55,037 nucleotides of DNA, from NCBI GenBank assembly GCA_964584985.1, contig CAZPBK010000006.1:1-55037 (forward strand). Direction: 5' to 3'. Positions 14,969-48,305 of the stretch are shown in pieces. Source of the DNA: an uncultured Gammaproteobacteria bacterium. GTDB lineage: Bacteria > Patescibacteriota > Patescibacteriia > UBA11705 > JABHMO01. A model generated the notes under the pieces. That model did not search any database. It saw nothing but the letters and a program-made list of their open reading frames with translations, and had not been told where the DNA came from. The position numbers were made by a program, and so were the translations under genes. The stretch's first letter is position 1. Each line of letters begins with the position of its first letter.

Positions 14969-15019
14969 ATTTATTTTTTGGCTAGTTTTTTATAAATCTT
15001 TATCAAAGGAGCTTTTTTT

Positions 15020-15143: not shown

Positions 15144-15149
15144 ATTATG

Positions 15150-15178: not shown

Positions 15179-15211
15179 GAGATTTTTCTTTAATTTTTCA
15201 ATAACTGGTTT

Positions 15212-15310: not shown

Positions 15311-15316
15311 TTGATT

Positions 15317-15345
15317 ATATTAATTTAGATTGGCTTTTTTGTCAA
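15317..15345 (-). promoter_or_regulatory. promoter of candidate sRNA 1
   Basis: On the minus strand: TTGACA (rc of 15340-15345), 17 nt spacer, TAATAT. A TATAAT lies 3 nt further downstream. Confidence 0.6.
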
Positions 15346-15346
15346 G

Positions 15347-15371
15347 AAAAAGCCGCTGTGATGACAGCGGC
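15347..15371 (-). terminator. intrinsic terminator of gatB
   Basis: GCCGCTGT-CATC-ACAGCGGC hairpin followed by TTTTT on the minus strand. Confidence 0.75.
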
Positions 15372-15473
15372 TCGATACAAAACAATTGCTAGGACGCTTG
15401 GAACAAAGGCGATACGGAAACACTTTTTCCAATTGTTCTGTACCAACTAAAACTTATCATGTTTTATCTTTTT

Positions 15474-17012: not shown

Positions 17013-17083
17013 AGGTTTTGTTTATAGTTTGATTTTAGCAAATAAAATTAAAAATTAAAAGCTCGGACTTGTTTTCTTGAAGA

Positions 17084-29007: not shown

Positions 29008-30066
29008 ATGTCTAAAAAAGAGAAGAAAAAGTTAATTATAATTATTCTGGCGGTTGTTTTTGTGCTGGGTCTTTTTTTTGTTGGGAGCTTTTTATATAAG
29101 CAAATAAAAAAAACCGAAAATCAAAATCAAAAACAGGTGGAGGCGATTATAAATAACGATTTTTCAGAGTGCGAGAAAAGAAAAAGTATTAACGGTCTTT
29201 GTTATGACCTTGATTCCGAACCCGGCCTATTTTCAGTGATGATAGAGAATCATTCGGACTCCAGACCTCCCAGTGGATTAAGCGGGGCTGATTTGATTTA
29301 TGAATCCGTGGTAGAAGCTCCGATCACCAGATTTTTAGCTGTTTTCAGTTTGGATAATAAAATAAATAAAATCGGTCCGGTGAGATCGGCTCGTCCTTTT
29401 TATGTTGATTGGGCCAAAGAGTTTAAGGCTCCTTATCTTCATGTGGGCGGTAGCCCGGAGGCTTTGGATTATTTGGCCGAGTCCTATGTTTTTGATTTAA
29501 ATCAGTTCTCTTTTGGTCAATATTTTTGGCGGGATTCCTCCAGGCACAAGCCGCATAATGTTTATACTTCCACGGATTTGGTAAAAAAAGCCATTGCCTC
29601 TCAATCTTGGTCAATAAAAAATGATTTCAACAGTTGGAAATATAAACCGGAGGGACAGATTGTTGATGAAGCAAAAACAGCAAAAGAAGTTTATATTAAT
29701 TTTAACAGCCCGGTTTATGCGGTTAAATGGTTGTATGATGAAAAAAGAAATAATTATCAGAGGTTTCAGGCCGGACGCCCGCATAAGGATGCTGATTATA
29801 CACAAATTTACGCTAAGAATATAGCGATTATGTATACGGAAAGTCGGATTATTGATTCTTACGGGCGCAGGGAAACCAAAACGGTCGGTCAAGGAAAGGC
29901 CTTGATTTTTCAAGATGGCAAAGTTTTGCCGGCCGAATGGAGAAGACCTGGCTTGGATCAGAGAACCAGATTTTTTTCCACACAAGATCAAGAGGTTAAA
30001 TTTAATCCGGGTACTACTTGGATTGAAGTTATACCTGTTCAATATCCTGAGGTTAAATATGAATAA
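29008..30066 (+). CDS. DUF3048 domain-containing membrane-anchored protein (YerB-like)
   Basis: IENHSDSRPPSGLSGADLIYESVVEAPITRFLAVF and RSARPFYVDWAKEF are typical of DUF3048. Confidence 0.75.
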   Translation: MSKKEKKKLIIIILAVVFVLGLFFVGSFLYKQIKKTENQNQKQVEAIINNDFSECEKRKSINGLCYDLDSEPGLFSVMIENHSDSRPPSGLSGADLIYESVVEAPITRFLAVFSLDNKINKIGPVRSARPFYVDWAKEFKAPYLHVGGSPEALDYLAESYVFDLNQFSFGQYFWRDSSRHKPHNVYTSTDLVKKAIASQSWSIKNDFNSWKYKPEGQIVDEAKTAKEVYINFNSPVYAVKWLYDEKRNNYQRFQAGRPHKDADYTQIYAKNIAIMYTESRIIDSYGRRETKTVGQGKALIFQDGKVLPAEWRRPGLDQRTRFFSTQDQEVKFNPGTTWIEVIPVQYPEVKYE

Positions 30067-30784
30067 AAAACAAGAATATAAAGAAAAATTCTATTGGATT
30101 TTTTTGGTCGTGGTGATCTTAAGTGGATTGTCCATTTACGGTTGGAATTTATTGCAAGGAAATAATTTGGCTCAACCTCCTAAAATTGATTTGGAAGAAT
30201 TAAATCAATCTAGTGAACAGTTTAAGACCCTTTTTGACGACAGAGGAAAAGATTCTTCAAACCAAGAGACGGCAACAGAGCAAAGATCAGAAAAACAAGT
30301 ATCCGTCGGACAAGATAAAGAAATAGGGAATTTGTCAAAGTATAATCCCGGATATGTTTATTTTAAGGATTGTTTTAGGTTGAATACGGCGGAAGAGAGT
30401 AGAGAGTTAATAGCCGGTTTTTTAATGGATTTTCCTGGGTTGGCGCAAGCGAATATTGAAATGCTCAATGCGGTGAAAAAAGTGGAATTGGGTTTACCTT
30501 TGGTAAACGGAGAAGAGGTTGTTGAGCGGTTGGAAGAAAGTGATTTGATAAAAAATCTTAAATTAAAAAAATCGCCCGTTTGGTCGGCCGAATTGGATAA
30601 AGAGATGTTTTTGTCTGTTTTTAAGGAGCGTTTGGTTCGGATAACCAAAGATGTTAAAATTTTAACAAAATCTTTGGATAAACAGTATGTGGCTCGAATA
30701 AATTATGTGGACCTAAAAGGTGTTCAACCCGAGGTTTTGCGTTTAAAGAAAGAATTTTCCAACATGGTTTGGATCAGTGAATAA
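30059..30784 (+). CDS. hypothetical membrane-anchored protein
   Basis: The ATG at 30059 overlaps the upstream stop (ATGAATAA). One TM helix (FYWIFLVVVILSGLSIYG). Confidence 0.55.
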   Translation: MNKKQEYKEKFYWIFLVVVILSGLSIYGWNLLQGNNLAQPPKIDLEELNQSSEQFKTLFDDRGKDSSNQETATEQRSEKQVSVGQDKEIGNLSKYNPGYVYFKDCFRLNTAEESRELIAGFLMDFPGLAQANIEMLNAVKKVELGLPLVNGEEVVERLEESDLIKNLKLKKSPVWSAELDKEMFLSVFKERLVRITKDVKILTKSLDKQYVARINYVDLKGVQPEVLRLKKEFSNMVWISE

Positions 30785-32244: not shown

Positions 32245-33297
32245 TTAATTTTGTAATTTGAATTCCGCTTCCTTTAATTCATTAATAATCGGTTGAAGGT
32301 CACCGTTTAAAATACTTTGAATATTATTCCAGCTTTTTTTTATTCGGTGATCAGTAATCCTGTCTTGAGGAAAATTATAAGTGCGGATTTTTTCACTGCG
32401 GTCGCCGGAACCGATTTGTTTTTTTCGGTCGGCGCCCAGTTTTTCTTCCTGCTGTTTTGTTTTTAACTCATAAAGTTTAGAGCGCAAAACCTGCATGGCT
32501 TTTAATTTATTTTGCGCTTGAGATCGTTCATCTTGGCAGGTGGCTATGGTGTTGGTCGGCAGATGAGTTATTCTTACGGCCGAGTTGCTGGTATTAACAC
32601 TTTGTCCGCCGGCTCCGCCCGCAGCAAAAGTGTCAATGCGCAGATCAGCGTCATTGATTTTTATGTCTGACTTCTCGGCTTCTGGTAAAACAGCCACACT
32701 GGCCGCCGAGGTATGAACTCGGCCTTGTTTTTCGGTTTCCGGCACTCTTTGTACGCGATGAACGCCTTTTTCATATTTTAATTGACCAAAAACATTTTGG
32801 CCTTTGATTTGAAAAATTATTTCTTTGAAACCTCCCATTTCCGTTTGGTTGGAGGAAATGATTTGAATTTTCCAATCTTTTTGCTCGGCAAAACGGGAAT
32901 ACATACGAAAAAGTTCGGCCGCGAAAAGAGCTGATTCTTCACCTCCGGTGCCGGCTCGGACTTCCATAATAACATTTTTCTTGTCCCTGGGATCTTTTGG
33001 CGCCAATTCGGATTTTAGTTCTTTTTCCAGTTTTTCCATTTCAGGTTCAAGATTTTTAATTTCTTCTTCTGCCAAATTTTTCAGCTCGGGATCTTCTGAT
33101 TGAAGTGTCTCCCGGGCTTGATTTAAATCCGATTTTATTTTTTCATATTTTTCAATCAATTCCATTGTTTGTTTAAGTTCCGAATGTTCGGCTCCCAGTT
33201 TTTTGATCTTTTCAGGATCATTGATAACTTCCGAACTTTGCAGCTCTTTTTCCATTGTCTGAAAATCTTTTTTGATTTTTTTTATTTTTTCTTGCAT
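32245..33297 (-). CDS. prfA: peptide chain release factor 1
   Basis: GGQSVNT (GGQ) motif, and PEAE in VAVLPEAE at the position of the PxT anticodon-like motif, consistent with RF1. Start set at 33297 ([10 protein letters not shown]). Confidence 0.93.
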
Positions 33298-33373
33298 ATT
33301 TTTATGGATAACTTTTTTAATTAAAAACACCTGCATAGTAATTATAAGATAAGCAGGCGTTTTTGTATAGAAG

Positions 33374-33670
33374 CTATTTTTTTTCTTGTTCTTTTTCTTC
33401 TTGTTCTTTTTTTTCGGCCTCAGCTTGTTTCTTGGCTTTTTTGCCTTTGCGAGTTTCAGCCGTTTTGGTTTGCTTGGCCATCTTTTCTTTGAATTTCTCC
33501 ACTCTGCGGGCGCTGTCAACCAACTTTTGTTTGCCCGTATAAAAAGGATGACACATGTGGCATAATTCCACGCTTATTTCTTTGTTGGTGGAGCCTACTT
33601 CAAACTCATTGCCGCAGGCGCAAGTGACCTTGGTTTTTGTGTGGTATTTCGGATGAATGTCTTTTTTCAT
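33374..33670 (-). CDS. rpmE: 50S ribosomal protein L31 with a Lys/Glu-rich C-terminal extension
   Basis: [10 protein letters not shown]...CACGNEF...[10 protein letters not shown] matches L31. Confidence 0.93.
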
Positions 33671-33849
33671 ATGGAATGATTTATACTTATTTTACTGGAT
33701 TTCTTTTGTGCCTGGATGATAGCATAAACTTAAAAAATATGCAAGTATTTGCTTTTAAAGGACTTAAAGGCGGAGGTGTGTGGATAATTTAGTGAAAAAA
33801 AACTTTTTTTGTGGTACAATATAATAAATTAGTCATAACATTTTAAGTT

Positions 33850-34215
33850 ATGAAAACCAAAAAGTTTTTAAGCGGATTGGCGGTTGGGACCTTGGTTGGT
33901 TCTGTTTTGGGATTGTTTATAAGTCCGGACAAAGGCAAGAAAAATAGAGAGAATTTTAGAAAAATGTCCAAAAAGGTCAGTCAAAGATTAATGACTGAAG
34001 CGGCTAAAGTTTCCAAGCTGGGGAAAAAAGAATATGAGGCCATAGTGGAAAATGTGATAAAAAAATACTCAAAGGATGATTTATTGAATAAGCAGGCTTG
34101 GGAAGAAATAGCCGAAGAGTTAAAAGGCCGTTGGACCGAGGTTCGTCGTGAGTTAAAAAAAACAAAACCGACTAGTTCAACCAAAAAGTCCGGTAAAAAA
34201 GCCAAAAAAAAGTAA
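33850..34215 (+). CDS. YtxH-domain protein
   Basis: N-terminal FLSGLAVGTLVGSVLGLFISPDKGKKNRE is typical of YtxH. Confidence 0.7.
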   Translation: MKTKKFLSGLAVGTLVGSVLGLFISPDKGKKNRENFRKMSKKVSQRLMTEAAKVSKLGKKEYEAIVENVIKKYSKDDLLNKQAWEEIAEELKGRWTEVRRELKKTKPTSSTKKSGKKAKKK

Positions 34216-34333
34216 TGTTAGGTCCGGAAAAATTTTCCAGGTTTAATGTATATCGGTATTTTGCGTCAATGATGTATGATATGGTTTTTTAGCCATTGAT
34301 TGATTGCTATTTAAACCCTAAAGAGAGCAAAAA

Positions 34334-34357
34334 AAGCCTGCCAGTCGGGCTTTTTTT
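34334..34357 (+). terminator. intrinsic terminator about 120 nt after ytxH
   Basis: AAGCC...GGCTT stem followed by T7. Confidence 0.55.
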
Positions 34358-34381
34358 GTTGAAGAGTAAATAAAAATTATT

Positions 34382-35206
34382 ATGATAAATTTTTTACACA
34401 ATTTTTTGCCGGATTCGGTTTTGTTTGATTTTTTTGGCTTAACCGTTCACTGGTATGGAGTAATGATGGTGATTGGCGGGTTGTTCGGTTTTTGGCTGGT
34501 TTTGAAATTGGCCGGTTTTTATAAACTGGATAAAAATATTTTTTTTGATTTATTGCTTTGGTGGGTGATTGGGGCGATTATCGGCGCTCGTCTTTATTAT
34601 GTTTTATACGCTTGGCCTTTTTATCAAGACAATTGGTTGGACATTTTTAAAATTTGGCAAGGCGGATTGGCGGTGCATGGAATTATTTTGGGAGGATTCT
34701 TGGCCACTTATATTTATGCCAAAATTAAAAAAATAAAATTTGGGCGATTGGCTGATTTAACGGCTACCGGTTTGGTGGGGGCGCAAATATTCGGAAGAGT
34801 CGGTAATTATTTTAATCAAGAAATTTTTGGAAAACCAACTGATTTATCTTGGGGGATTCCCATTGAACCGCAATTCAGACCGGCTGAATTTTGGACCAGC
34901 TCTTATTTTCATCCGACCTTTTTGTATGAAAGTTTGGGGAATTTGGTGATTCTGGTCGTTATTTTGTTGTTACATTATAAATTTATTCGCAAAAAAGAAA
35001 ATTTAAATGGTCGGATCTTTGTGTTGTATTTGGTTCTTTATTCCGGTTTGCGGTTTTTGTTGGAATTTTTAAGGCTTGATTATAGTCCGGTCGTGTTTGG
35101 TTTTCGTTGGGCTCAGATTCTAAGTTTTTTAGTCATGATTTTGGGGATGGGCTTTTTATTGAGGAGGGTCTTTTTTAAAAAAAGACAAGGACAAAAAGTG
35201 GAATAA
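34382..35206 (+). CDS. lgt: prolipoprotein diacylglyceryl transferase
   Basis: HWYGVMMVIGG, GARLYYVL, WQGGLAVHG and GRVGNYFNQEIFGKPT. Confidence 0.93.
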   Translation: MINFLHNFLPDSVLFDFFGLTVHWYGVMMVIGGLFGFWLVLKLAGFYKLDKNIFFDLLLWWVIGAIIGARLYYVLYAWPFYQDNWLDIFKIWQGGLAVHGIILGGFLATYIYAKIKKIKFGRLADLTATGLVGAQIFGRVGNYFNQEIFGKPTDLSWGIPIEPQFRPAEFWTSSYFHPTFLYESLGNLVILVVILLLHYKFIRKKENLNGRIFVLYLVLYSGLRFLLEFLRLDYSPVVFGFRWAQILSFLVMILGMGFLLRRVFFKKRQGQKVE

Positions 35207-35244
35207 ATAGAAAAAATAATGTGGATTAATTCTTATTAAATCAG

Positions 35245-35273
35245 TTGTCGGTCAAACGAAAAAGTGATATAAT
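35245..35273 (+). promoter_or_regulatory. extended -10 promoter of the 35325 gene
   Basis: TTGTCG, 17 nt spacer, TGaTATAAT. Confidence 0.55.
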
Positions 35274-35324
35274 AAATAACGATAGGGAAAATTAGAAAAA
35301 ATGTCAGCGAGCTTTTAATTTGTT

Positions 35325-37190
35325 ATGGATAGTTTTTTTGTTTTATTGAAGGATAAGAGCAGTATTAAGAGAAAGGGCGGTTTTTTTTCACTGGCTTTTG
35401 TTTTTGTGGTTGTTTTTTTCTTTTTTGGCGGACAGGTTTTAGCGTCGGATTCCGAAGTTTTTTCCGGATTTTTATCTCCGGAAATGAGAACTCCTGAAGT
35501 TTTGTCAAAAAATCAAATAAAATGGCCTTTCTATGACCGATCCTTTGGTGAAAAATGGTTTGAGCTTCGGAGTAAGTCCGGAGAGCTTTTAAAAAAAGTG
35601 GAGGATTTGGATTTGACTTATATTATTGAAAAAAATTTGCAACCAAATACCGGCTATCAGCGTCGAATACATGCTTGCAAGGAAGATACTTATGCGGCTT
35701 CAGCTTTGTCCGAAAAGGTTTTCACTTTGGCCGCCAGACCGCAAATCAAGGCAGTCTATGTTCAGCCAAATGGAAATATCGGTTTGGAGGTTGATCATCA
35801 GGGAAATCCAAAATATACAAAGTATGCCATTTATGAAAAGGAAAGAGATTTGTGGTTGCAACCTAATTATACATTGGGTAAAAGAAGAGTTTTTCAGCCT
35901 TATTCAGATTGGATTGCTGATACCAGAGCGGTGCAAATAAAACAAACCGAGCCTGAACAAAAATATGTTTTTGCCGTTCAAGCCAAAAATGAAGAAGGCA
36001 ATAAAACCAATTTGTCTGAATACCGAGAGGTTGTTTCCGCTGATCTGGATAATCCGAATTTGTTGATAAAAAAGAAAGTGGGAGTGGATCTGGAAAAAAA
36101 AATGGCAAGAGGTTTTTATATGGGGGATTTGGTTTTTGCCGGTATAAATTCAGATTGGGCGAAAACCCTTCCGGTTTATTCCGTTTATTTGAATTGGATT
36201 ATTTTTGGCTTTGCGATTTTACTGGTTCTTTTTTTGTCAGGTCTAATTTTAAATTCCAAAAGATCTAAATCAGTAAAATATATCCCCGAGGTTTTGCTTG
36301 ATGATTGGAGGCGACGGGAAGTTGATGCTTATTATCATTTAATGCATGGCCAGGGGAAAAGCGACAATCATCAGCGTTATCATAGACATAAACATTTTTA
36401 TCGCTGGTCGGGTTATTCTTTCTTGGGACTTGTTTTGTCTTTGGCCGTAAAATTGGGAGTGTTTGTTCTGGCTTTTGTTCTTATTTACGGACAGGTTCCC
36501 ATTATGGCTTTTTCCGATCAAAACAAGCACCCCGTTCCCGAAGATGGTGCTTTAATCTACGAAGTCTTGGTTGAAAATACGGGTAGAAAAACCGAAGCAG
36601 GTGTTTTTATAGAGGAAAAAATTCCTCAAAAGGTTTCTTATGTAAATTCCAGTATGACGGTTAACGGTTTGGCGCAAACGGACGATCGGGATGATGATCA
36701 AGCTTTTATTAAAGAAAACTTGATAAAAACCAAAGTGCGGGATCTTGCTCCGGGAGAAAAGGTTGTTCTAAGGTTTAAGGTTTTAATTAAAGGGGAGCCT
36801 GAAGAAGTGATCAGTAATGAAGCTGTAATCAAATATAACCGGGGTGATTTTTTTACCAGAAGCAAAAAAGTAAGCAATAAAATAGTTAAAAAACAAGATT
36901 TTAATTTGGCCAGCTTGCAGGTGCAAAATATCAGTGAAAAAGCAGAGCCCGTATTTTCTTATGATGAAGCTGATTGGTATGTTCAAGTTATAGATCAATA
37001 TATAAATTTTAGCCGAAAATCCAAAAATGATTTTAGAAAATATATAATGTATGATATTGAGCCTTTGGAAAAAAATAGATTGAAGCAGTATAGAGCCGAA
37101 GATGTTTTCAAAATAATTTTTGAGCATTCTCCGGAAAAAGAGGTTGAAAAAGCGGTGGTCAAGGCCGTAGCTTATATTTTAGTGCGTTAA
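35325..37190 (+). CDS. membrane protein: two FN3-like domains, a TM hairpin, and a DUF11-like domain; paralog of an internal module of the downstream giant protein
   Basis: 621 aa. Collinear by-eye similarity to giant-protein residues about 1476-1935 (for example TLAARPQIKAVYV.../TLAAQPQINKVEI..., HKHFYRWSG/HKHFYRLRG, and the DUF11-like segment). Confidence 0.8.
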   Translation: MDSFFVLLKDKSSIKRKGGFFSLAFVFVVVFFFFGGQVLASDSEVFSGFLSPEMRTPEVLSKNQIKWPFYDRSFGEKWFELRSKSGELLKKVEDLDLTYIIEKNLQPNTGYQRRIHACKEDTYAASALSEKVFTLAARPQIKAVYVQPNGNIGLEVDHQGNPKYTKYAIYEKERDLWLQPNYTLGKRRVFQPYSDWIADTRAVQIKQTEPEQKYVFAVQAKNEEGNKTNLSEYREVVSADLDNPNLLIKKKVGVDLEKKMARGFYMGDLVFAGINSDWAKTLPVYSVYLNWIIFGFAILLVLFLSGLILNSKRSKSVKYIPEVLLDDWRRREVDAYYHLMHGQGKSDNHQRYHRHKHFYRWSGYSFLGLVLSLAVKLGVFVLAFVLIYGQVPIMAFSDQNKHPVPEDGALIYEVLVENTGRKTEAGVFIEEKIPQKVSYVNSSMTVNGLAQTDDRDDDQAFIKENLIKTKVRDLAPGEKVVLRFKVLIKGEPEEVISNEAVIKYNRGDFFTRSKKVSNKIVKKQDFNLASLQVQNISEKAEPVFSYDEADWYVQVIDQYINFSRKSKNDFRKYIMYDIEPLEKNRLKQYRAEDVFKIIFEHSPEKEVEKAVVKAVAYILVR

Positions 37191-37275
37191 TTTTTAGTAT
37201 GTTTTTAGACATATTTTGTAAGGAAAAGTTTTTAAATAAGCTCTAAAATAATATAATAGAGCTGAAATTTATGTT

Positions 37276-40200
37276 ATGCTAAGGCGGTTGAAGAAAAATT
37301 GGAATAGATTAAAAACCTTGTCTGTTTTTTGGCCGGGTTTGTTTTTGGTTGTGGGTGTGTGTTTGTTGCTTTTTTTTGATGCCAAGGCCTTTACTTGGAC
37401 TACGAATTCAATAAATGATTCTTATTCTGTTGGTTATTCCAATAACCGATCTATTTCCACCTATGTAGTTGACTCTGATCATCAGTATTATGCTTATGTA
37501 AATGGAAGCTGGGATGCTTTGCGTTACGCCTATAACAATAATGGCAGTTGGACTTATGCCAGTGGCGGGGACGGTTTGCTTAGAGGGAGTATGCCGGCCG
37601 GGGATGTCGACGACCGCAACGGAACCGACATAGCCTTGGATGGTTCCACTCCGGTTATTTCTTTTTCCAGTACTACGGACGGAGTTTATGTCGCCAGGCA
37701 AGATACCAACTATAACAGGAGTGCGGATGATTCGGGATGGTCTTTTGAAGAAGTTTATACAGGTGCTCATGTTATAGAGTCCAATCTGGAGATAGATAGT
37801 ATAGGTGTTCCACACTTGGCTTTTTATAATAGCGATGATAGTGAAATTATTTACGCCCATGAAGATGAGGGGATCAATGATCCGGATTGCGGAACTTTGG
37901 GAGATTGGCAGTGTGAGGTGGTGGCCGGTACCGGAATCACGGGGGTTATGCCCAGAATGATTTTGCGCTCTTCTGATGATATGCCCGTGGTTGTTTTTGC
38001 CGATGTAGGCAATAACGAAGTAATCATGGCTGTTCGTAATGGTGGTGGCAGTGGAACTTGTCCGGATAATAATGAGTGGAACTGTTATACGGTGTACGAT
38101 TCGGTTTATACTTCCGAGCGTTATACGAGGATGGGGTTGGCTGAAAATTCCAACGGTCAATTCGGAGTTGTTTTTCCCAGCTCTACAGAGAAGTTGGATT
38201 ATGCCATTCATGATGCCGGAGATTATTCCTCTTGGACGGTTACCAATGTAGAAGACTCCGGAGGCTGGTTTGGTGCGGACCTTACCTACAACGGCACCAC
38301 TCCGATGTTTGCTTCGTATCATGATCATACTTCGTCAACTCCTTATGATTTGGTTTTCTACAGTTACGATGGAGCGACCTGGCAGACTGAGACAATAGAT
38401 GATACTTCAAATAATTGTTTTGATTTTGATTTGGAAAACGATGGTTCTTTTACTTTGGCGGCTTTTGGCCATGACGATGGTAGCTCTGATTTATATCCGT
38501 ATTATTCCACGGCCACGGTTACTTATAATAGTTTACCAACGATTTCCAGTTCAGGATCCCCCGAGCAACACTCAATGGATTTTTTAAGCAGTACACATGT
38601 TTATTATTATTGGACTCCGACCGAAGCTAATATCGGTAAAGTTATCTGGCGTAACTGGGTGGCGGATGGTGATAACGATGGAGTAATGCTTAAATTTGAA
38701 TACTCGGATGATGGGGGTGCCAATTGGTATGATCCATACATTGATTCCATTTTATACACCAATGCGGATCTAGATAACAGTCAAACCTACCAAGTGGGTA
38801 CAAATACCAAGATTGATATTGCCGGTGGCGAGGACAGTGTAATGATTTATTGGGATCCTAAATCAGCCAATAATGAAAAACCGATTGATGATGTGGAAAA
38901 CAGCAATGTTATGCTCAGGGTGACTCCGCACGACGGCACTTCCGCCGGTTCGGCTTCCGCTACCGGAGCTTTTTCCGTGGATACCTTGGACCCTTCCGGG
39001 CTGGGTAGTTTTAGCGCTGATACGGTAAACAGTACCAGCGTGGATTTTAGTTGGGATACGGTGACTGAAAATAATTTCCATAATTATGAGATCTGGGTTG
39101 GTCGTGATCAGACAAATGTGCAAAACAGAACCAATAGTAGCTCTTGGTCTTACAGTCAATTGGGCGTTAGTCATAATGGTGGAACTCATATGGAAGACTT
39201 TGAACATTTGGATTTTGATATGGATGGGGATGAAGATGTAATAGCTTTTAGTGAAGAAATTGGCAGTAGTTATGACTTAAATTGGTATGAAAATGATGGA
39301 ACGGCCTCTTTTTCCCAACATACGATAATAGAGGGAACTACGGAAGATGTTTATAATGATTTGGTTTTTCAAGTGGTGGATTTTGATGGAGATGAAGATT
39401 ATGATCTTTTAACTTATTATACCAAAAATTCAACCGGATACAGTTATTTCTCTTGGTATGAAAATTCTGGAGATAATTTGACCTTTACAGAGAATTTTAT
39501 TCGTGAGGAGATAGTTCCCGCACCGGAGGATATGGTAGCTTATGATTTTAATTCGGACGGCTATTTGGATGTGGTGACCAGTGATGCTTTTGAAATGTCT
39601 CTTTATTTGAATTCCGGAGATAACTCTAGTTTTACCAAAGAAACGGTCATTGAAAACAGTGATCTTATCCTTGATTTAAAGGTGGGGGATGTTGATGGTG
39701 ATTCTGATATAGATGTGGTCGGTGTAACCGGTTCCGGAGATGATAAAATATATCTTTATAAAAATTCCGGAGATAACTCAAGTTTTACTCGTTCGGAAAT
39801 AGGTAGCGGTTATAATAAAGTTGAACTTGAAGATATAGACCAGGATGGTGATTTGGATGTTTTTGGAGGGATTGAAACTAACAGGCTTTGGTTTAATGAC
39901 GGAGGTGGAAATTTTACTGAACTTGACAGCTGGGAAATGTCTTCTCCGTCCTTGGGATATTGTTATGAGTTGGTGGATTTGGATGAGGATGGTGATTTGG
40001 ACATTGTTGGTATATATAATAACAGTGATGTGCAATGGTTTGAAAACAGAGACGGTGATTTTTTCGTGGAGCATGATATAAAAACCGGAGTAGTTGATAA
40101 TATTGAAGGTGTGGTGGTGGCTGATTTTGATATGTTTGGAATGGACGATAAATTGGAAGTTATAAATGTCAACAGAAGTGAAGATAGTCAAGCCTTTTTT

Positions 40201-43200
40201 ATTTCGTCATATTCCACACCAAAGGCCAGGGAGTGGACTGCCATGGAAGATGGTGACTTGGAAACAATTGGTACGGGAACTACTACTTTGACCGGATTAC
40301 AAACCAATCAAGATTATTATTTTAAAATTTGGGGAGTTGATATTTTTAACAACTATACCACGGTTGCCGATATAACCGCTCATACTCCGGCCAGCGTGCC
40401 GGGGCAACCCGAAGTTTCCGCTGAAAGTAATAGTAGTCTGCGTTTGACTATTGATCCCAATAATAATTCATCTTCCGTGGTTTATAAAGCTCATGAAACC
40501 GGTACCGGTGATTATGTGGAGGTTGTGGGTGGTGATTATGTTTTGGGTTCAGCCTTTCCAATGAATTATTATGCTGTCGGGGTGGATGATTGGGGTGGCC
40601 CATCGGGAAGGGAGATAACCGGTCTCTCCACCAATACTGAATATACTTTTGAGATAATCGGAATTGACGATAACAGCACGGAAACAGTAGCTTCGGCTTC
40701 GGCCAGCGCTTACACTATGGCCAATATACCGGGAACGCCAACGGTGACAGCTGAAGGCACTGATACTTTGGGCGTGGCTATTGATCCGAATTCCAATCCG
40801 TCAAATACTGAATATAAAATTAGGGAAACAACAACAGGTAATCATGTTGGGGTACCTATAGGACCTATTATATATTTTATGTTGCAACCGGGAGAGTACT
40901 GGCATGATTATTCCTATTGGGGGAGCTCTTCCGGTCAAACTGTAGATGATCTTTCCACCAATACCCAATATACTTTTGAAGTGACCGCCAGGAACGGCGA
41001 TAATGTGGAGACCTCAGCTTCCGGCACAGCCTCAAAATATACTTTACAGGGAGCACCGACCGGAATCAGCGCGGTTGAACATACTGATTCCATAGATCTT
41101 ACTTTTTCCGGTAGCTTTGCTAATTTGAGCAGTGGCAGTTCGGGGCTTTATATTGAAAATACCACGACGGGTCTTAGTTCTCCTTGGATGGATACCACTT
41201 CGGTTTCCGATACCAGTGCTACAACCGCCAATACCAAATATTCATATTTATTAAAATCTAGAAATGGCGATGGAGTAGAATGTGCCTCTACCGCGACCGA
41301 TGATTTTTACACCTTGCAAAATACGCCAACCGGAGTTAGCGCTAGTGAAATCAGTTCCACTGAAATAATCATTACTGCTACCGGTACCTTGCCCAATCTG
41401 ACCAGTGGCAGTTCAGGCCTTTATTTTGAAAATGTGACCAAAGGCACAAATTCCGGTTGGATTCAAACCAATTCTTGGACCAGTTCAAGCTTGGATGCCG
41501 ACACTGATTATACTTTTAGGGTAAAGGCCAGAAATCAACAAGGAGTGGAAACAGCCTTTAGTCCAATTTCAACGATTACCACCGAGCCGGCACGTCGACA
41601 TGTGCCCGGGGATTCGGGTGAAGACGATGGGGATGATGATGAGGAAGACTCAGGTGATGAGCCGGAGGAAGATGAGCCCGGAGAGTTTGAACCGGCGCCA
41701 TTGATTACTCCGCAGATGTCTGATCCGGTGGTTTTGTCAGATAATTCCATAAAATGGGTTTTTAGCGAGACTTCGGCCAGTGAAACCGGGTATAAACTTT
41801 GGAATAACGAAGATGATTTGATTATAGACATTGAAGAATCGGATTTAAGCTATATTGTTGAAGAAGACTTAAGTCCAAATACTCAATACCAAAGAAAAGT
41901 CAGTTGTTATAATGAATCCGATACCAGCGGTATTTCGGATTTGGCTTCCGCCTATACATTGGCTGCACAGCCACAGATAAACAAGGTTGAGATTTTAACA
42001 GAAGATTCAGTAGGCTTGGAAATAAATACAGCGGGGAATCCGGAAGATACCAAATATGCCGTTTATGAAGCTTTGTCCGGAGGATGGCTTAATGATCAAA
42101 ATGAACTGACAGGAAGTAAGAGCTTTTACTCTTTTAATGATTTGGTTAATGAAGATTCACAAGTTTTGGTTAAAGGACTGGAAATAGGTACGGAATATTC
42201 TTTTCAGATTTTAGCTAAAAGCAAAAGCCAGGTGGAAACCGATTTTTCAGAAGCTTTTAATATTTTAATGACTCCGCCTCATTATCCGTATATTACCGTG
42301 GAAAAAAAGGTGGGAATAAATATTTCAAAACCGGTTGCTTCCGGCTTTCATATTAGTAAAGCTGCCTTAGCCTCCGACGGTGGTTTTATCAAATCTTTAC
42401 CTGTTTATAATAAAATATTGAATAAATACTTATTTGTTGTTTTTGCTGTGTTGTTTGTTTTGGCTTTGTTTATTATTTTTAATTCAATTAGTAAAGAGAC
42501 CTGGAAAAAGTTCAGACATTTACCATCTTTGATTTTTACCGATGTAAGAGCCAAAAAAACAGAGCAAAAATATGAAGAATTGCATGGCAGAGAAAAACCC
42601 AAAAAAGGAATTAAATTCAAGGTTCATAAGCATTTTTATAGATTAAGAGGTGTTGCTTTTTTGAGTTTTCTTCTGGGGGTAGCCGCTAAAGCGGGAATTA
42701 TTATAGTTACCTTATTTTTGGTTTACGGAAGAGTCAGTGTTTTGGCCATTGATGATCAAAATGGAGAAAGTGTAAGTCAGGGTGATATGCTGACTTATCA
42801 AATTATTGTGTCCAATTTGGGAAAATCCCGAGCTAACGATGTTTTGTTGACTGACCCTTTGCCCGATGAAGTTGAGTATGTTTCCGGTAGCGCCAAGGTT
42901 GATGGACAAAAGGTTACTGATGTTTCCGATGAAGACGGTTGGACTTTTATCAGTGGTTTAGGCATGTTGGAAAAGGATAAACTCTTGAAGGACGAAAATA
43001 TTGTGTTGAGTTTTAAGGCTACCGTAGTCAGTGGATCGGGAGCAAGCGTGGAGAATATCGCGACGGTTGGTTACAAGGAAAGCGAGGAAAGAGTTTATTC
43101 CAACGCGGCTATTAATCCTATTGTCGGTGGCCGGGCGTGCAGTGACGGTTTGGATAATGATAATGACGGACTGATTGATTATCCGAATGATTTTGGTTGT

Positions 43201-45414
43201 AAGAGTAGTTTGGATTTTACTGAGTTTGTTGATTTCGAACCAGTATGCGATAAAATATCACAGATAATGGTTGAACCGAAAAAGACTTTTGTTAGATTAA
43301 ATGTTTGTGCTGTTTTAGGATTTGAAAAATTTAATAACTTTTCTACATTAAAGATAGGTAAGCTTGATGAATCAGCCGGACTCGTTGCTTTTCGTGTGGA
43401 AAACCCGGTTAATTATTTTATTTTGTCGGAAGGTCAAACAGCCAGAGTTGATCTTAACGGAGATAAAATAAATGATTTGAGCTTTTATCTTGATGAAATT
43501 ATTAACGAGCAAGAAGTTGATTTGGTGATAAGTTCAACTGAGGCGGATGATGAATTTGAACCGGAGCCGTTAATAGATATCTTTGATATTGAGGAGGATG
43601 TTATTTGCGGGGACGGGGTTTGCAGTGAAGGAGAGACTTGTGAAAACTGTCCGAACGATTGCGGGGAATGCGAACCTGAATATTTTTGTGGGGACGGTGT
43701 TTGTTCCGTTGAGGAGAGCTGTGAAACTTGTTCGGAGGATTGCGGAGTCTGTGAACCGGAAGTTGTTTGTGGAGATGGAATTTGCAGTCAAAGTGAAAAC
43801 TGTGAAACTTGTTCGGCGGATTGTGGTGTTTGTGAACCCGAGGAAGAAGAACAGCCGGAGGAAACCGAAGAGGAAGAAGAAACTGAAGAAGAAGCCGAAG
43901 AGGAAACTGAAGAAGAAGCCGGAGAAGAACAGCCGGAAGAAGGAGCTGAAGCCGAGCGGGGAGAAGAGTCTGAAGCCGGTCCGGGCGGACAAACTGATGA
44001 AGAAAAGTTAGACGAAATAAATGAAAAAGATGAATGGGAAAAAACCGATGAGGAAAGAGCTTTTGAAGTTGAGCAAGAAACCAAGAATGTGGTTGAATCT
44101 GCGACCGTGCAAAAATCAGCTAAAGCTGTAGCTGATTTTATGGCCAATCTTACCAAAGGGGATTCGGAAAAAATAAAGCAATCAATATTAAATACGGTAG
44201 AAACCACGGTCAGAACCACTAAAAAAGTACAAAAAGCAACAATTGATAATCCTACGGTGGAAAAAGTCAATGATGTGGCCAAAGAGCCGGCCGTGGCTGC
44301 CGTAACAGCCACTTCCGTAGCCTCGGTGGCTACGGTTGGCGCCACCGGCGCGGCCGGCGCCAGTGCTTTAACTTATTTGCAGTTCTTGATTACGCAACCG
44401 TTTGTTTTATTGGCCAGAAGACGCAGAAGAGGCTGGGGAGTGGTTTATGATTCGGTCACTAAGCAACCGATTGATTTAGCTGTGATTAGAATATATGATG
44501 TGAAAAATAACCGTTTAGTCGGAACTAGAGTTACCGACAAACAAGGTCGATATGAATTTATTCGCGAGCCGGGTAGATATTATGTGGAAGTGGAAAAGAA
44601 AAAATACAAATTCCCATCCAACATTTTGCAAGGTAAAAATGAAGATGGTAAATTTAGAGGATTGTATTTTGGCGGAGAATTTGATTTAAGTGAAAAAAGC
44701 GTAGTAGCCAAAAATATTCCAATGGATCCGCATCAATTAACTGAAAAAAATGCTAAGGTGTTGAGAGTAAATCTTGTTAGAAAAGGACAAACCGCATTAA
44801 CGGTTATTGGTCCGGGATTGGCTTTAGTTTCTTTTGTTATAAATCCGGGTTGGTTGGTCGGTTCGGTGGTCGGGTTGCAATTGGCTTTGTATTTTATGTT
44901 TAAACGTTTGGCCATAGGCAAAAAACCAAAGGGCTGGGGAAGAGTTATTAATAGTGAAAATAAAGCCGGTGTACCAAAAGCCATTGTCAGGGTTTTTGAT
45001 ACCAAGTTTAATAAATTATTGGATAGCAAAATAACAGATACTCAAGGAAGATATGCTTTTTTGGTGGGGGATCAGGAATATTATATGACTGCGGAAAAGC
45101 CGGGATTTTATAAGAAGCGAACCGAAAGGTTTGATTTATCCAAAAAAGAAGAAGACTATTTGGCGGAAGATATTTATGTCAGACCGTTGGATTTGGGCGA
45201 AGAGTATGTGGAATCGCAAGAAGAAGAAAAACATACCACAATTCGTGCTGATGTGGGAAGACAAAAAGAAAAAATTGAGCAAAATATGCAAAGAGTAACC
45301 AGGCCGGAAGACCAAAAATTAAGTCGCGAATTACCCGAAGTGGATATGGAAGACATGCATGAGGATTATTACAGTGTTGATGTTTTGGATAAAAGAAAAA
45401 ACAAATATGAATAA
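37276..45414 (+). CDS. giant (2712 aa) polytopic surface protein: beta-propeller-like repeats, 7 FG-GAP/VCBS-like repeats, FN3 array, TM hairpin, DUF11-like domain, Cys-rich repeats, poly-Glu region, and a C-terminal membrane module with two carboxypeptidase-regulatory-like domains
   Basis: One uninterrupted ORF with an N-terminal TM/signal segment. Seven DxDGDxDxD(V/L) motifs, several FN3-like units ending ..Y.F.V.A.N, three CGDGxCS..E.CE.C..DCG.CEPE repeats, and GWG(V/R)V...TD.QGRY.F repeated twice. Confidence 0.9.
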   Translation: MLRRLKKNWNRLKTLSVFWPGLFLVVGVCLLLFFDAKAFTWTTNSINDSYSVGYSNNRSISTYVVDSDHQYYAYVNGSWDALRYAYNNNGSWTYASGGDGLLRGSMPAGDVDDRNGTDIALDGSTPVISFSSTTDGVYVARQDTNYNRSADDSGWSFEEVYTGAHVIESNLEIDSIGVPHLAFYNSDDSEIIYAHEDEGINDPDCGTLGDWQCEVVAGTGITGVMPRMILRSSDDMPVVVFADVGNNEVIMAVRNGGGSGTCPDNNEWNCYTVYDSVYTSERYTRMGLAENSNGQFGVVFPSSTEKLDYAIHDAGDYSSWTVTNVEDSGGWFGADLTYNGTTPMFASYHDHTSSTPYDLVFYSYDGATWQTETIDDTSNNCFDFDLENDGSFTLAAFGHDDGSSDLYPYYSTATVTYNSLPTISSSGSPEQHSMDFLSSTHVYYYWTPTEANIGKVIWRNWVADGDNDGVMLKFEYSDDGGANWYDPYIDSILYTNADLDNSQTYQVGTNTKIDIAGGEDSVMIYWDPKSANNEKPIDDVENSNVMLRVTPHDGTSAGSASATGAFSVDTLDPSGLGSFSADTVNSTSVDFSWDTVTENNFHNYEIWVGRDQTNVQNRTNSSSWSYSQLGVSHNGGTHMEDFEHLDFDMDGDEDVIAFSEEIGSSYDLNWYENDGTASFSQHTIIEGTTEDVYNDLVFQVVDFDGDEDYDLLTYYTKNSTGYSYFSWYENSGDNLTFTENFIREEIVPAPEDMVAYDFNSDGYLDVVTSDAFEMSLYLNSGDNSSFTKETVIENSDLILDLKVGDVDGDSDIDVVGVTGSGDDKIYLYKNSGDNSSFTRSEIGSGYNKVELEDIDQDGDLDVFGGIETNRLWFNDGGGNFTELDSWEMSSPSLGYCYELVDLDEDGDLDIVGIYNNSDVQWFENRDGDFFVEHDIKTGVVDNIEGVVVADFDMFGMDDKLEVINVNRSEDSQAFFISSYSTPKAREWTAMEDGDLETIGTGTTTLTGLQTNQDYYFKIWGVDIFNNYTTVADITAHTPASVPGQPEVSAESNSSLRLTIDPNNNSSSVVYKAHETGTGDYVEVVGGDYVLGSAFPMNYYAVGVDDWGGPSGREITGLSTNTEYTFEIIGIDDNSTETVASASASAYTMANIPGTPTVTAEGTDTLGVAIDPNSNPSNTEYKIRETTTGNHVGVPIGPIIYFMLQPGEYWHDYSYWGSSSGQTVDDLSTNTQYTFEVTARNGDNVETSASGTASKYTLQGAPTGISAVEHTDSIDLTFSGSFANLSSGSSGLYIENTTTGLSSPWMDTTSVSDTSATTANTKYSYLLKSRNGDGVECASTATDDFYTLQNTPTGVSASEISSTEIIITATGTLPNLTSGSSGLYFENVTKGTNSGWIQTNSWTSSSLDADTDYTFRVKARNQQGVETAFSPISTITTEPARRHVPGDSGEDDGDDDEEDSGDEPEEDEPGEFEPAPLITPQMSDPVVLSDNSIKWVFSETSASETGYKLWNNEDDLIIDIEESDLSYIVEEDLSPNTQYQRKVSCYNESDTSGISDLASAYTLAAQPQINKVEILTEDSVGLEINTAGNPEDTKYAVYEALSGGWLNDQNELTGSKSFYSFNDLVNEDSQVLVKGLEIGTEYSFQILAKSKSQVETDFSEAFNILMTPPHYPYITVEKKVGINISKPVASGFHISKAALASDGGFIKSLPVYNKILNKYLFVVFAVLFVLALFIIFNSISKETWKKFRHLPSLIFTDVRAKKTEQKYEELHGREKPKKGIKFKVHKHFYRLRGVAFLSFLLGVAAKAGIIIVTLFLVYGRVSVLAIDDQNGESVSQGDMLTYQIIVSNLGKSRANDVLLTDPLPDEVEYVSGSAKVDGQKVTDVSDEDGWTFISGLGMLEKDKLLKDENIVLSFKATVVSGSGASVENIATVGYKESEERVYSNAAINPIVGGRACSDGLDNDNDGLIDYPNDFGCKSSLDFTEFVDFEPVCDKISQIMVEPKKTFVRLNVCAVLGFEKFNNFSTLKIGKLDESAGLVAFRVENPVNYFILSEGQTARVDLNGDKINDLSFYLDEIINEQEVDLVISSTEADDEFEPEPLIDIFDIEEDVICGDGVCSEGETCENCPNDCGECEPEYFCGDGVCSVEESCETCSEDCGVCEPEVVCGDGICSQSENCETCSADCGVCEPEEEEQPEETEEEEETEEEAEEETEEEAGEEQPEEGAEAERGEESEAGPGGQTDEEKLDEINEKDEWEKTDEERAFEVEQETKNVVESATVQKSAKAVADFMANLTKGDSEKIKQSILNTVETTVRTTKKVQKATIDNPTVEKVNDVAKEPAVAAVTATSVASVATVGATGAAGASALTYLQFLITQPFVLLARRRRRGWGVVYDSVTKQPIDLAVIRIYDVKNNRLVGTRVTDKQGRYEFIREPGRYYVEVEKKKYKFPSNILQGKNEDGKFRGLYFGGEFDLSEKSVVAKNIPMDPHQLTEKNAKVLRVNLVRKGQTALTVIGPGLALVSFVINPGWLVGSVVGLQLALYFMFKRLAIGKKPKGWGRVINSENKAGVPKAIVRVFDTKFNKLLDSKITDTQGRYAFLVGDQEYYMTAEKPGFYKKRTERFDLSKKEEDYLAEDIYVRPLDLGEEYVESQEEEKHTTIRADVGRQKEKIEQNMQRVTRPEDQKLSRELPEVDMEDMHEDYYSVDVLDKRKNKYE
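39211..40170 (+). other. FG-GAP/VCBS-like repeat region of the giant protein (predicted 7-blade propeller)
   Basis: Motifs DFDMDGDEDVIAF, DFDGDEDYDLL, DFNSDGYLDVV, GDVDGDSDIDVVG, DIDQDGDLDVFGG, DLDEDGDLDIVG and ADFDMFGMDDKLEV. Confidence 0.7.
43606..43848 (+). repeat. 3 x 81-bp in-frame repeats encoding a 27-aa six-Cys module
   Basis: CGDGVCSEGETCENCPNDCGECEPEYF / CGDGVCSVEESCETCSEDCGVCEPEVV / CGDGICSQSENCETCSADCGVCEPEEE. Confidence 0.9.
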
Positions 45415-46040: not shown

Positions 46041-46117
46041 TGGCGGACCGGACGGGACTCGAACCCGCGATCTCCTGCGTGACAGGCAGGTGTGTTAACC
46101 AACTACACCACCGGTCC
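46041..46117 (-). tRNA. tRNA-Asp (anticodon GUC), CCA encoded
   Basis: 77-nt cloverleaf: acceptor GGACCGG/CCGGUCC, D-stem GUGU/ACAC, anticodon stem CCUGC/GCAGG with loop CU-GUC-AC, T-arm GCGGG-UUCGAGU-CCCGU, discriminator G, then CCA. Confidence 0.95.
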
Positions 46118-47915: not shown

Positions 47916-48305
47916 TGGTGGAGATGGCGGGAGTTGAACCCGCGTCCGGAAAACATTATTAACCGCTTCTACAGACTTAGTTTACCTTATGTTTTTCAAA
48001 GTTTCAACCTCAAAGGTAAACGAAAAAGTTGAACTTTTAGCCTTATGGATTTTTTCAGTTGCAAAACAAGGCGATTTTGCAACCTAACCCGCTGATTGAC
48101 ACCGGATTTTGCTTAGCGGGCGTTAGCAAGCCGATGGTTTCCGATTTTAGTTAAGCGGAAACAGGAACAAGGCAAGGCATTGTTGCCAATGACTTTACCT
48201 TGCAGGCAATTTTGTTTGCACTTATAGAGTTTGGCGCTTTTAATGAGATTCGCCGACTCAGCCTGCGAAGTTAATGATAATTTCCCGTCAAAGTCCGTCA
48301 TCCCC
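47916..48305 (-). ncRNA. ssrA: transfer-messenger RNA (SsrA)
   Basis: 5' GGGGAUGACGGACUUUGACGGG and 3' GGACGCGGGUUCAACUCCCGCCAUCUCCACCA form the tRNA-like domain. Candidate tag ORF at 48219-48151. Lies 5 nt downstream of smpB. Confidence 0.93.

Follow-up and report, generated by a model that had tools for sequence, protein, structure and literature searches.

The window analysed here is the whole 55,037-nucleotide stretch of contig CAZPBK010000006.1 (assembly GCA_964584985.1), which carries on its forward strand, at 37276..45414, a gene encoding a giant protein of 2712 amino acids (aa); all features of this gene given below lie on the same strand. The open reading frame (ORF) runs from an ATG start to its stop codon, included in these coordinates, with zero internal stops, in agreement with the single 8.1-kb ORF described in an earlier, sequence-only reading of the window. 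Directly upstream, at 35325..37190 (+), a 621-aa paralogue comprises a signal peptide, two FN3 domains, a transmembrane (TM) helix, a basic loop, a second TM helix and a CLIPPER domain. On balance, we favour the view that the giant is a cell-envelope protein of Patescibacteria (Candidate Phyla Radiation, CPR) built on a conserved chassis and involved in host or surface contact; it would be held in the membrane at three places, with two large acidic ectodomains fastened there and linked to conserved domains in the cytoplasm. All named relatives belong to the Patescibacteria (Falkow-, Buchanan-, Magasanik-, Uhr- and Nomurabacteria, and the Parcubacteria group), as expected from the CPR-type cell suggested by the sequence-only reading.

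The middle of the protein is occupied by a hairpin cassette. Its first part consists of two FN3 domains and the juxtamembrane sequences KKVGIN and LPVY (41701..42429, aa 1476-1718), assigned by profile matches and alignment. Next comes TM2 (42430..42480, aa 1719-1735; hydropathy 2.89), predicted to run from outside to inside, the hydrophobic block of which is kept in 20 sequences. The following loop (42481..42651, aa 1736-1792), predicted to be cytoplasmic, has an isoelectric point (pI) of 10.4, with 17 K/R in 54 residues and no Cys; its motifs are RHLPSLIFTD and HKHFYR in the giant, and KHLKHxHKxLFxD, Y/FxLLHG and YxxHxxFY+ in the family consensus. The chain then enters TM3 (aa 1793-1818; hydropathy 2.47), which has Lys1805 at mid-helix and leads to V1822-L-A1824|I1825, a hypothetical cleavage site (42652..42756 for TM3 and this site). 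An AlphaFold2 (AF2) model computed from a 20-sequence alignment, with a predicted local distance difference test score (pLDDT) of 81, contained long helices at aa 1703-1737 and 1779-1817, two short helices in the loop and the CLIPPER sandwich. The sequence-only reading had placed TM helices at about aa 1719-1737 and 1793-1818, around a basic loop, and had named AlphaFold as a check; hydropathy, conservation in the 20 sequences and the two long AF2 helices all agree with this placement.

The paralogue is colinear with aa 1476-1952 of the giant (31% identity, E=2e-78) and is 100% identical at the protein level on four independent contigs; past its CLIPPER domain it has a tail of ~100 aa with no further anchor. 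A profile made from the two copies of the cassette (giant and paralogue) was searched exhaustively against 1.84 billion representative sequences. Among the best 150 representatives, 19 matched it end to end in one stretch, namely the paralogue and 18 giants of 1293-3635 aa; at least 18 cassette-bearing giants come from other metagenomes or datasets. The 20 sequences, among which are the giant and the paralogue, share a colinear profile match over both helices, the loop motifs and an invariant Lys in the middle of TM3 (20/20). Comparison of the giants' sequences with the family consensus revealed a chassis of ~1200 aa with a fixed order: two FN3 domains, KKVGxN, a TM helix, the loop, a TM helix, AFENQSG-CLIPPER, a CxDGxDNDxDG motif, an unnamed domain, CGDxxCx6Cx2Cx3Cx2C repeats, an acidic linker and a C-terminal membrane module. 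This chassis stands behind variable N-terminal parts made of NHL-type repeats, FG-GAP, BNR-like propellers, LamG-like domains, FN3 arrays or orphan heads. A polytopic protein, in which long acidic, Cys-containing segments alternate with membrane passes, is supported by these data. Such re-entries into the membrane had been considered atypical of adhesins in the sequence-only reading; the alternating passes hold, but they are not a one-off, as they characterize a family with a fixed chassis. A word-indexed homologue search with the cassette returned no relatives, and a scan of GTDB genomes with cassette patterns gave 103 pattern matches, of which 0 were confirmed.

The residues that follow TM3 would also fit a polyprotein, in which TM3 acts as an internal signal peptide and signal peptidase I cuts after V1822-L-A1824. 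Two anchored subunits would result, an N-terminal giant ectodomain held by TM2-loop-TM3 and a CLIPPER-first part held by the C-terminal module, in an arrangement otherwise compatible with the organisation proposed here. Seventeen of the 20 aligned sequences display [V/I/L/T/S]-x-A followed by F/I-(E/D)-N-Q, extended to -(S)-G, with Ala at -1 of a signal-peptidase-I-like (-3,-1) site and a conserved helix-breaking Y-G 6-7 residues upstream. The distal part of TM3, past the invariant Lys, resembles a 13-residue h-region plus a 6-residue c-region, and comparable AxA-type sites terminate the true N-terminal signal peptides of family members. However, a hydrophobic stretch of 26 residues (aa 1793-1818) is more than a cleaved signal usually has, the conserved V-x-A-F-E-N-Q may be no more than the opening strand of the CLIPPER fold, and cleavage in the 621-aa paralogue would free a CLIPPER half without any anchor, which makes non-cleavage more sensible there. 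Processing of this kind deserves attention but appears doubtful to us, and a single chain held at both membrane parts remains the preferred arrangement.

A different concern, already raised in the sequence-only reading, is that such an ORF could have arisen during assembly or annotation, as a chimera of two to three neighbouring surface-protein genes or as a repeat misjoin. One independent assembly does break inside the gene: a 41-kb contig (L001; ENA ERZ27257105, k141_1000632) covers the first 1427 codons of the giant and stops directly before the acidic linker, for which strain variation, coverage or a local repeat are possible causes. An exact look-up of the giant product found no record with exactly that product, an exact 27-mer of the linker/cassette junction had 0 matches in JGI metagenomes, hence no independent contig spanning the joint, and the sequence collections searched contained no independent contig for the 3' half from ~41557. 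On the other hand, four independent assemblies or contigs are 99.9% identical to the window across 32325-40190, which reaches through the 5' third of the gene, and self-comparison of the gene revealed no long near-identical repeats, the longest one being 103 nt at 71%. The colinear modules, including both membrane junctions, are found in at least 18 representatives elsewhere, and the hairpin junction occurs in the adjacent paralogue too. Because the module order and both membrane junctions recur in unrelated datasets, we take the giant ORF to be real and not a chimera; an artefact seems very improbable.

The C-terminal membrane module begins with a Gly/Ala/Thr-rich segment (aa 2340-2363), TM4 (aa 2364-2380) and RRRRR (aa 2381-2385), altogether at 44293..44430. 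A first transthyretin-like beta-sandwich (44431..44730, aa 2386-2485), with WGxVYDSxTKxPxD ... NIPMDP, shows the highest conservation in the family. It is followed by a helical hairpin of TM5 (aa 2506-2522) and TM6 (aa 2526-2542), joined by an uncharged 3-residue turn (44791..44901) and covered by a single segment of the hydropathy scan (aa 2504-2545). A second transthyretin-like beta-sandwich (44938..45180, aa 2555-2635), with VRVFDTKFNKLL...TDxxGRYAF, was assigned by profile, AF2 and Foldseek. The charged tail (45181..45411), mostly of low pLDDT and probably disordered, ends with MHEDYYSVDVL (aa 2694-2704). The AF2 model of the module, computed from 64 sequences (pLDDT 82, predicted template modelling score 0.67), contained a helix at 2358-2379, a sandwich at 2388-2485, a helical hairpin at 2493-2522/2526-2546, a sandwich at 2555-2635 and a small beta-hairpin in the low-confidence tail, with both sandwiches above a pLDDT of 90. 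Both C-terminal domains are seven-stranded transthyretin-type beta-sandwiches according to AF2 and Foldseek, the latter giving 5aq0, the transthyretin-like domain of carboxypeptidase D, with a target-normalised TM-score (template modelling score) of 0.82 and a root-mean-square deviation (rmsd) of 2.0, and also SdrD B, SpaA/CnaB pilin domains and NOMO. At the profile level, SdrD_B scored 34.8 bits (cutoff 29.7), CarbopepD_reg_2 27.3 (cutoff 32.2) and bMG3 27.1 (cutoff 34.9). Invariant or near-invariant columns of the module are W68, G69, Y72, K77, P79, I162, P163 and D165.

A word search with aa 2320-2712 returned 67 relatives, most of which bear precomputed PF13620 matches; the only name among them was 'carboxypeptidase regulatory-like domain-containing protein' (Falkowbacteria, Paceibacterota, Patescibacteria group). 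With one degenerate peptide pattern, 450 module relatives were confirmed in GTDB species genomes, which, together with the cassette in at least 18 giants, gives the distribution across CPR genomes that the sequence-only reading had proposed to examine. The module lies at or near the C-terminus (tail of ~225 residues at most) in 84/84 ORFs from 80 loci, in proteins of ~400-3389 aa. Hairpin cassette and C-terminal module occur together only in the window, in L011 (GW2011_GWA2_40_23, 3389 aa), in L010 (2518 aa) and in a frameshifted gene of L005. A second, large sub-family of FN3-rich giants (1.3-3.7 kaa) combines a conserved N-terminal W(Y/F)(D/N)xxWxYR+P... domain, long paired-FN3 arrays and the C-terminal module, with no internal hairpin; its members are P0004, P0005, P0015, P0018, P0066, P0069, P0071, P0083, P0084, P0092, P0093, P0103 and P0115. 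Genuine stand-alone members of 300 aa also exist, devoid of a signal peptide and with a weak first hydrophobic segment. Two other candidates for stand-alone modules, P0156 (480 aa) and P0158 (545 aa), were rejected, their loci showing frameshifted or fragmented giant genes. The L005 locus (1-17707 of a 564-kb contig, GCA_964590105.1) harbors three tandem giant surface-protein genes, the middle one being split by a frameshift (ORFs 3166-10062 and 10001-11443) with its C-terminal fragment annotated as a separate 480-aa protein; L006 is similarly fragmented.

Between the two membrane parts, the second ectodomain opens with a CLIPPER/DUF11 CnaA-like immunoglobulin (Ig) domain (42748..43131, aa 1825-1952). 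It was recognized at aa 1829-1943 by Pfam PF01345 (50.5 bits, cutoff 24.6; E=3e-13) and by TIGR01451 (46.2 bits, cutoff 24; E=3e-12). Its AF2 sandwich was matched by Foldseek to PDB 9IFR (TM-score 0.70, rmsd 3.3) and also to Gram-positive pilins and integrin calf/thigh domains; a sequence search of this region against the PDB gave chance-level matches only. A canonical intramolecular isopeptide bond, which takes a Lys in the first strand, an Asn in the last strand and a catalytic Asp/Glu, is doubtful in this domain because its first strand (aa 1825-1840, IDDQNGESVSQGDMLT) contains no Lys; many DUF11 domains are devoid of this bond (PMC12617251). The motif CSDGLDNDNDGLIDYPNDFGC, of CxDGxDNDxDG type (43138..43200), had no Pfam match and is present in 0 to ~20 tandem copies in relatives. 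Elsewhere in the window, a 696-aa ORF (2931-5021, +) with a Peptidase_C39_2 domain also has a putative metal-binding motif of MopE type (PF11617, E=2e-18), which resembles this motif of the giant. The next segment is a family-conserved domain without a database model (43201..43605, aa 1976-2110; A3 consensus GWxxF...HxVxL...SDPIxV...VDxDxN). Three 27-aa six-Cys repeats, CGDGxCx6Cx2Cx3Cx2C (43606..43842, aa 2111-2189), identified by repeat and motif search, come after it; relatives usually have 3-8 copies, and some, e.g. P0024, P0057 and P0088, have none. Neither the unnamed domain nor the Cys-rich region had a Pfam or PDB match. The ectodomain continues with a poly-Glu acidic linker, defined by composition (43834..44007, aa 2187-2244). 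The DUF11-like domain, now backed by Pfam, TIGR01451 and fold matches, the CSDGLDNDNDGLIDYPNDFGC motif, at exactly the same coordinates, the three six-Cys repeats and the poly-Glu stretch had all been spotted in the sequence-only reading, and all four stand.

The N-terminal half starts with a signal peptide or signal anchor (37276..37389, aa 1-38), with an n-region MLRRLKKNWNRLK that contributes 6 K/R, an h-region at aa 15-35 (hydropathy 2.44) and a putative cleavage site A-K-A|F. The head that follows (37390..38565, aa 39-430) is an orphan of unassigned fold: no match was obtained for it in Pfam, among PDB sequences, in homologue searches or by phmmer among the fetched giants, and self-BLAST showed no significant internal repeat. 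The ~400 aa of beta-propeller-like repeats that the sequence-only reading had placed here are thus unverified, as all these searches came back empty. Next is a domain of beta-sandwich type with an Asp-box, SDDGGANW (38566..38946, aa 431-557), which has a weak BNR match (E=0.046) and is homologous to the relatives P0020 (E=8e-29) and P0024 (E=4e-24).

Downstream of this domain, seven FG-GAP repeats (39145..40215, aa 624-980) are flanked by the two halves of an FN3 domain. The N-terminal half (38947..39144, aa 558-623) aligns with the first half of an intact FN3 in P0024 (E=2e-17) and in P0020, and the C-terminal half (40216..40395, aa 981-1040) with the second half (E=1e-13 for P0020, E=6e-14 for P0024). 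Because one uninterrupted FN3 in P0020 and P0024 corresponds to aa 558-623 plus aa 981-1040 of the giant, the alignments place the seven-repeat FG-GAP unit inside an FN3 domain (38947-40395). The FG-GAP/integrin-alpha-type repeat (PF13517, PF01839) was recognized by FG-GAP_3 in 6 stretches with 112.9 bits against a cutoff of 26.9 (E=1e-32). Seven DxDxDG-type Ca motifs at aa 646, 702, 757, 805, 853, 901 and 950 (nt 39211-40149) are spaced by 144-168 nt (48-56 aa), and seven repeats are enough for a predicted closed 7-blade propeller. The seven FG-GAP/VCBS-type Ca motifs of the sequence-only reading are thereby confirmed, and its FN3-like unit ahead of them stands in part: the N-terminal half of an FN3 is there, but the rest is the Asp-box sandwich (aa 431-557), and the C-terminal half of the FN3 lies after the insert. 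Four further FN3 units (40396..41586, aa 1041-1437), with Pfam fn3, NDNF and Pur_ac_phosph_N matches, form an array in which DNA repeats are 71-90% identical with periods of 273 and 327 nt. An acidic linker (41587..41700, aa 1438-1475; 41% D+E) separates this array from the cassette. Pfam fn3, with a cutoff of 25, scored 46.3 bits at aa 970-1440 (E=5e-12) and 32.3 bits at aa 1470-1715 (E=1e-7). Both the linker and the FN3-like units previously described on either side of it are recovered, as is the N-terminal TM/signal segment by its hydropathy. The E-values of the confirmed domains lie well under what chance would produce.

Composition splits the giant sharply. Ectodomain 1 (~1680 aa) has a pI of 4.05 and a net charge of -208, and ectodomain 2 (~510 aa) a pI of 4.05, a net charge of -92 and 22 Cys. 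All 30 Cys of the giant lie in the ectodomains, versus 0 in the hairpin loop and the two sandwiches, for which the pI values are 10.4, 10.1 and 9.3. The same division was observed in 77 ORFs, where Cys amounts to 2.36% in the ectodomains (median pI 4.5) versus 0.03% in the module. Across 64 homologues, the flanks adjoining the sandwiches contain on average 3.9 (post-TM4), 4.5 and 3.1 K/R, versus 0.05 (Gly/Ala-rich segment) and 0.11 (TM5-TM6 turn) on the opposite side. Chain connectivity puts both sandwiches on one side of the membrane, and a single helix before them would place them opposite ectodomain 2. The charge and Cys split, the K/R of the flanks, the family-wide composition, the disordered tails with terminal motifs and the 300-aa members lacking a signal peptide together make it likely that both C-terminal sandwiches are cytoplasmic. 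The C-terminal membrane module and the carboxypeptidase-regulatory-like modules of the sequence-only reading are present, as two CarboxypepD_reg/SdrD_B-like domains, but the latter probably sit in the cytoplasm, outside the extracellular array.

These features suggest the following organisation. A Sec signal peptide would export ectodomain 1, composed of the orphan head, the Asp-box sandwich, the FN3 with its nested seven-blade FG-GAP unit and six more FN3 domains. The chain would then dip through the membrane as a two-helix hairpin, the conserved basic His/Tyr-rich loop facing the cytoplasm, and re-emerge as ectodomain 2, with the CLIPPER Ig domain, the CxDGxDNDxDG motif, the unnamed conserved domain, the three six-Cys repeats and the poly-Glu linker. 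Finally, the three-helix C-terminal module would deliver two basic transthyretin-like sandwiches and a charged tail with its terminal motif into the cytoplasm. Both ectodomains may thus make up a long acidic structure at the cell surface that serves for contact or as a scaffold, with the hairpin and the C-terminal module serving as rivets, i.e. multi-helix anchors backed by folded cytoplasmic domains that would resist extraction from a single-membrane envelope. This anchoring role is proposed because the giant has neither an LPXTG sortase signal nor a lipobox. A lipoprotein anchor was rejected: in spite of lgt two genes upstream, no [LVI][ASTVI][GAS]C occurs within residues 1-60; a sortase anchor was likewise rejected, [LIV]Px[TSA]G being absent from the whole protein and the C-terminus being hydrophilic.

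Several points weigh against this organisation and its assignment to surface contact. In distant homologues, two hydrophobic segments precede the basic cluster, which would put the sandwiches on the outer side of the membrane should both of them be spans; TM4 itself is only moderately hydrophobic (Y, Q, T, Q and P inside) and falls below the Kyte-Doolittle threshold of 1.6; and, as a rule, domains of the transthyretin-like, CnaB and SdrD-B types lie outside the cytoplasm. No domain for ligand binding or catalysis was recognized, the head has no detectable relatives, and attachment to a host, by a cell presumed to be an episymbiont, is suggested by analogy only. A conserved operon partner was sought at 81 module loci, where only housekeeping neighbours (IF3/L20, AI-2E transporter, PolA, RmuC) were encountered.

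The topological points lead to an arrangement in which the C-terminal module spans the membrane four times, through the Gly/Ala-rich segment, TM4, TM5 and TM6, and both sandwiches are extracellular, as stalk bases or cell-wall-polymer-binding domains. Besides the paired hydrophobic segments of the distant homologues, it would suit the nearest solved folds (SdrD B, SpaA, CnaB pilins, carboxypeptidase D and NOMO), which are all extracytoplasmic, and the basic pI could fit anionic wall polymers. Yet in the 64 homologues it would expose 3-4.5 K/R per flank on the outer side, with practically none facing the cytoplasm, and it relies on a Gly/Ala-rich segment of low AF2 confidence. It also sits poorly with the 300-aa stand-alone members, which have neither a signal peptide nor a strong first TM, with the Cys-free module next to Cys-rich ectodomains, and with the tails, two of which are poly-basic while in others a compositionally disordered linker leads to a terminal linear motif. 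We consider four spans unlikely and retain cytoplasmic sandwiches.

As for function, the giant could be something other than an adhesin, either a structural envelope scaffold (S-layer-like or spacing) or a protein with an unrecognised enzymatic or lytic activity in the head or the unnamed domain. Both aa 39-430 and aa 1976-2110 are without a recognisable family, and the conserved housekeeping neighbourhood suggests a core envelope component; giant genes are reportedly implicated in cell-wall degradation by predatory bacteria, according to the title alone of a preprint (10.1101/2023.11.21.568195). But neither a catalytic motif nor a catalytic family was detected, and the high variability of the N-terminal parts (NHL, FG-GAP, BNR-like, LamG-like, orphan) is the pattern that binding modules specific for a ligand or a host should show when mounted on an unchanging anchor. 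A non-adhesive role is, in our estimation, decidedly unlikely, and contact with a host or a surface is the function that we prefer.

Under the preferred organisation, the rivets may also couple the surface structure to a cytoplasmic partner via the sandwiches, the loop motifs and the terminal motif. One extension of this idea, which is speculative and on the improbable side, is that the C-terminal module would be a Patescibacteria-wide transmembrane coupling device, its sandwiches and terminal motif ([FY]G-COOH or HEDYYxVDxL) docking an intracellular partner and linking ectodomain contact mechanically or informationally to the cytoplasm. The tail ends with [FY]G-COOH in 18/81 module ORFs and with HED[YF]Yx[VL]DxL in 7/81, the latter corresponding to the clade of the window. 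Tails with [FY]G-COOH (L013-L017, L022, L023, L025, L027, L029, L033, L036, L038, L040, L041, L053, L059 and L083) are long and compositionally disordered (e.g. ...PPPEKSIFG), and their end resembles a conserved terminal linear motif without a known reader. Two other tails (L084 and L031) are extremely basic. If such a device existed, it would amount to an integrin-like outside-in/inside-out system in ultra-small episymbiotic bacteria, and the internal hairpin, with its invariant membrane-embedded Lys and His/Tyr-rich loop, would provide another site of coupling or assembly.

For a large part of bacterial diversity, a central question still open is by what means cells of CPR/Patescibacteria attach to their hosts and communicate with them; only a small number of their surface structures are molecularly defined. 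One peptide pattern (450 loci) tags the anchor end that stays constant in a large and hypervariable set of surface proteins, so that candidate host-contact heads could be catalogued phylum-wide. The predicted cytoplasmic sandwiches and terminal motifs suggest how a single-membrane cell could anchor such proteins, and the interest of the family would rise substantially if cytoplasmic coupling were true; should the predicted topology be wrong, the family would still define a conserved membrane-proximal stalk base.

The genomic setting is that of an ordinary chromosome, with gyrB, gatB, murD, rodA, prfA, prmC, lgt and tmRNA in the window. The sole promoter-like site lies at 35245-35273, upstream of the gene of the 621-aa paralogue, which is weak evidence that this gene and that of the giant may be transcribed together from it. 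Just downstream of the giant gene are a tRNA-Asp(GTC) gene (46041-46117, -) and a tmRNA gene (47916-48305, -), the tag of which is unusually long with 28 residues (APNSISANKIACKVKSLATMPCLVPVSA). In the equivalent region of L006, smpB is found along with the same gene order of AI-2E transporter, PDZ-protease and Wzz. Two ORFs of the window, 29008-30066 and 29915-30784 (+), overlap by ~150 nt, the first encoding DUF3048; a mis-set start or a frameshift is possible. Many third-party annotation (TPA) records of metagenome-assembled genomes labelled 'uncultured Gammaproteobacteria bacterium' (L007, L008, L010, L012 and others) hold the Patescibacteria-type gene, and at least one such record (L006) is syntenic with the window; these names look like placeholders.

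We found no description in the literature of the chassis, of the hairpin cassette with its invariant Lys, of the FG-GAP-in-FN3 nesting or of the phylum-wide C-terminal module with its terminal motifs and its transthyretin-like domains, probably cytoplasmic, nor of a CarboxypepD_reg module in Patescibacteria. Giant membrane proteins of CPR bacteria that contain DUF11, integrin and fibronectin domains have already been proposed as attachment proteins, and the ten longest proteins of Vampirococcus lugosii, of 1392-4163 aa, are membrane-localised (PMC8080830). The giant shares with them its very large size, its membrane localisation in an ultra-small bacterium, the combination of DUF11, integrin-type (FG-GAP) and fibronectin domains, and a proposed role in host recognition or attachment; compared by description, the parts of that account available to us mention no hairpin cassette, module of three TM helices and two sandwiches, or family-wide chassis (PMC8080830).

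In fibrillar adhesins, CLIPPER/DUF11 is well known as a stalk domain (PMC12617251; PDB 9IFR), and the giant has in common with these adhesins a signal peptide, a head, a stalk of Ig-like, FN3 and CLIPPER domains, and an anchor. It differs by its single CLIPPER domain right after a membrane helix, instead of a tandem stalk, and by its anchor, which is a multi-pass membrane module and not an LPXTG, OmpA-like or sorting tag. In structure, the nearest counterparts of the two C-terminal sandwiches are SdrD B, the CnaB domain of SpaA and the transthyretin-like domain of carboxypeptidase D, which brings the giant near the Gram-positive MSCRAMMs and pilins. In the latter, however, these domains form an extracellular stalk with a sortase anchor, whereas those of the giant are interleaved with TM helices, basic, Cys-free, predicted to be cytoplasmic and without LPXTG. 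The cytadhesins of Mycoplasma (P1, P40/P90) are large, TM-anchored adhesins of wall- and genome-reduced bacteria, the cytoplasmic tails of which touch an internal scaffold and some of which are cleaved precursors; they are single-pass, have no sequence or domain similarity to the giant, and would share processing with it only hypothetically. A preprint on the Pam pilus was also considered and set aside as unrelated.

Like integrin alpha, the giant has seven Ca-loop FG-GAP repeats, Ig-like leg domains, an anchor, a cytoplasmic tail with a short conserved motif and a possible outside-inside coupling. Unlike it, the giant would cross the membrane six times instead of once, counting the N-terminal segment (five predicted spans beyond the signal peptide), its FG-GAP unit is nested in an FN3 domain, and its cytoplasmic part would consist of two folded sandwiches; no beta-subunit-like gene was noted in the annotation of the neighbourhood. 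Sequence homology to integrin alpha is limited to the FG-GAP repeat, and the resemblance is a functional analogy only. The giant thus misses the defining features of sortase-anchored MSCRAMMs, lipoproteins and integrin alpha, and resembles them loosely in its working.

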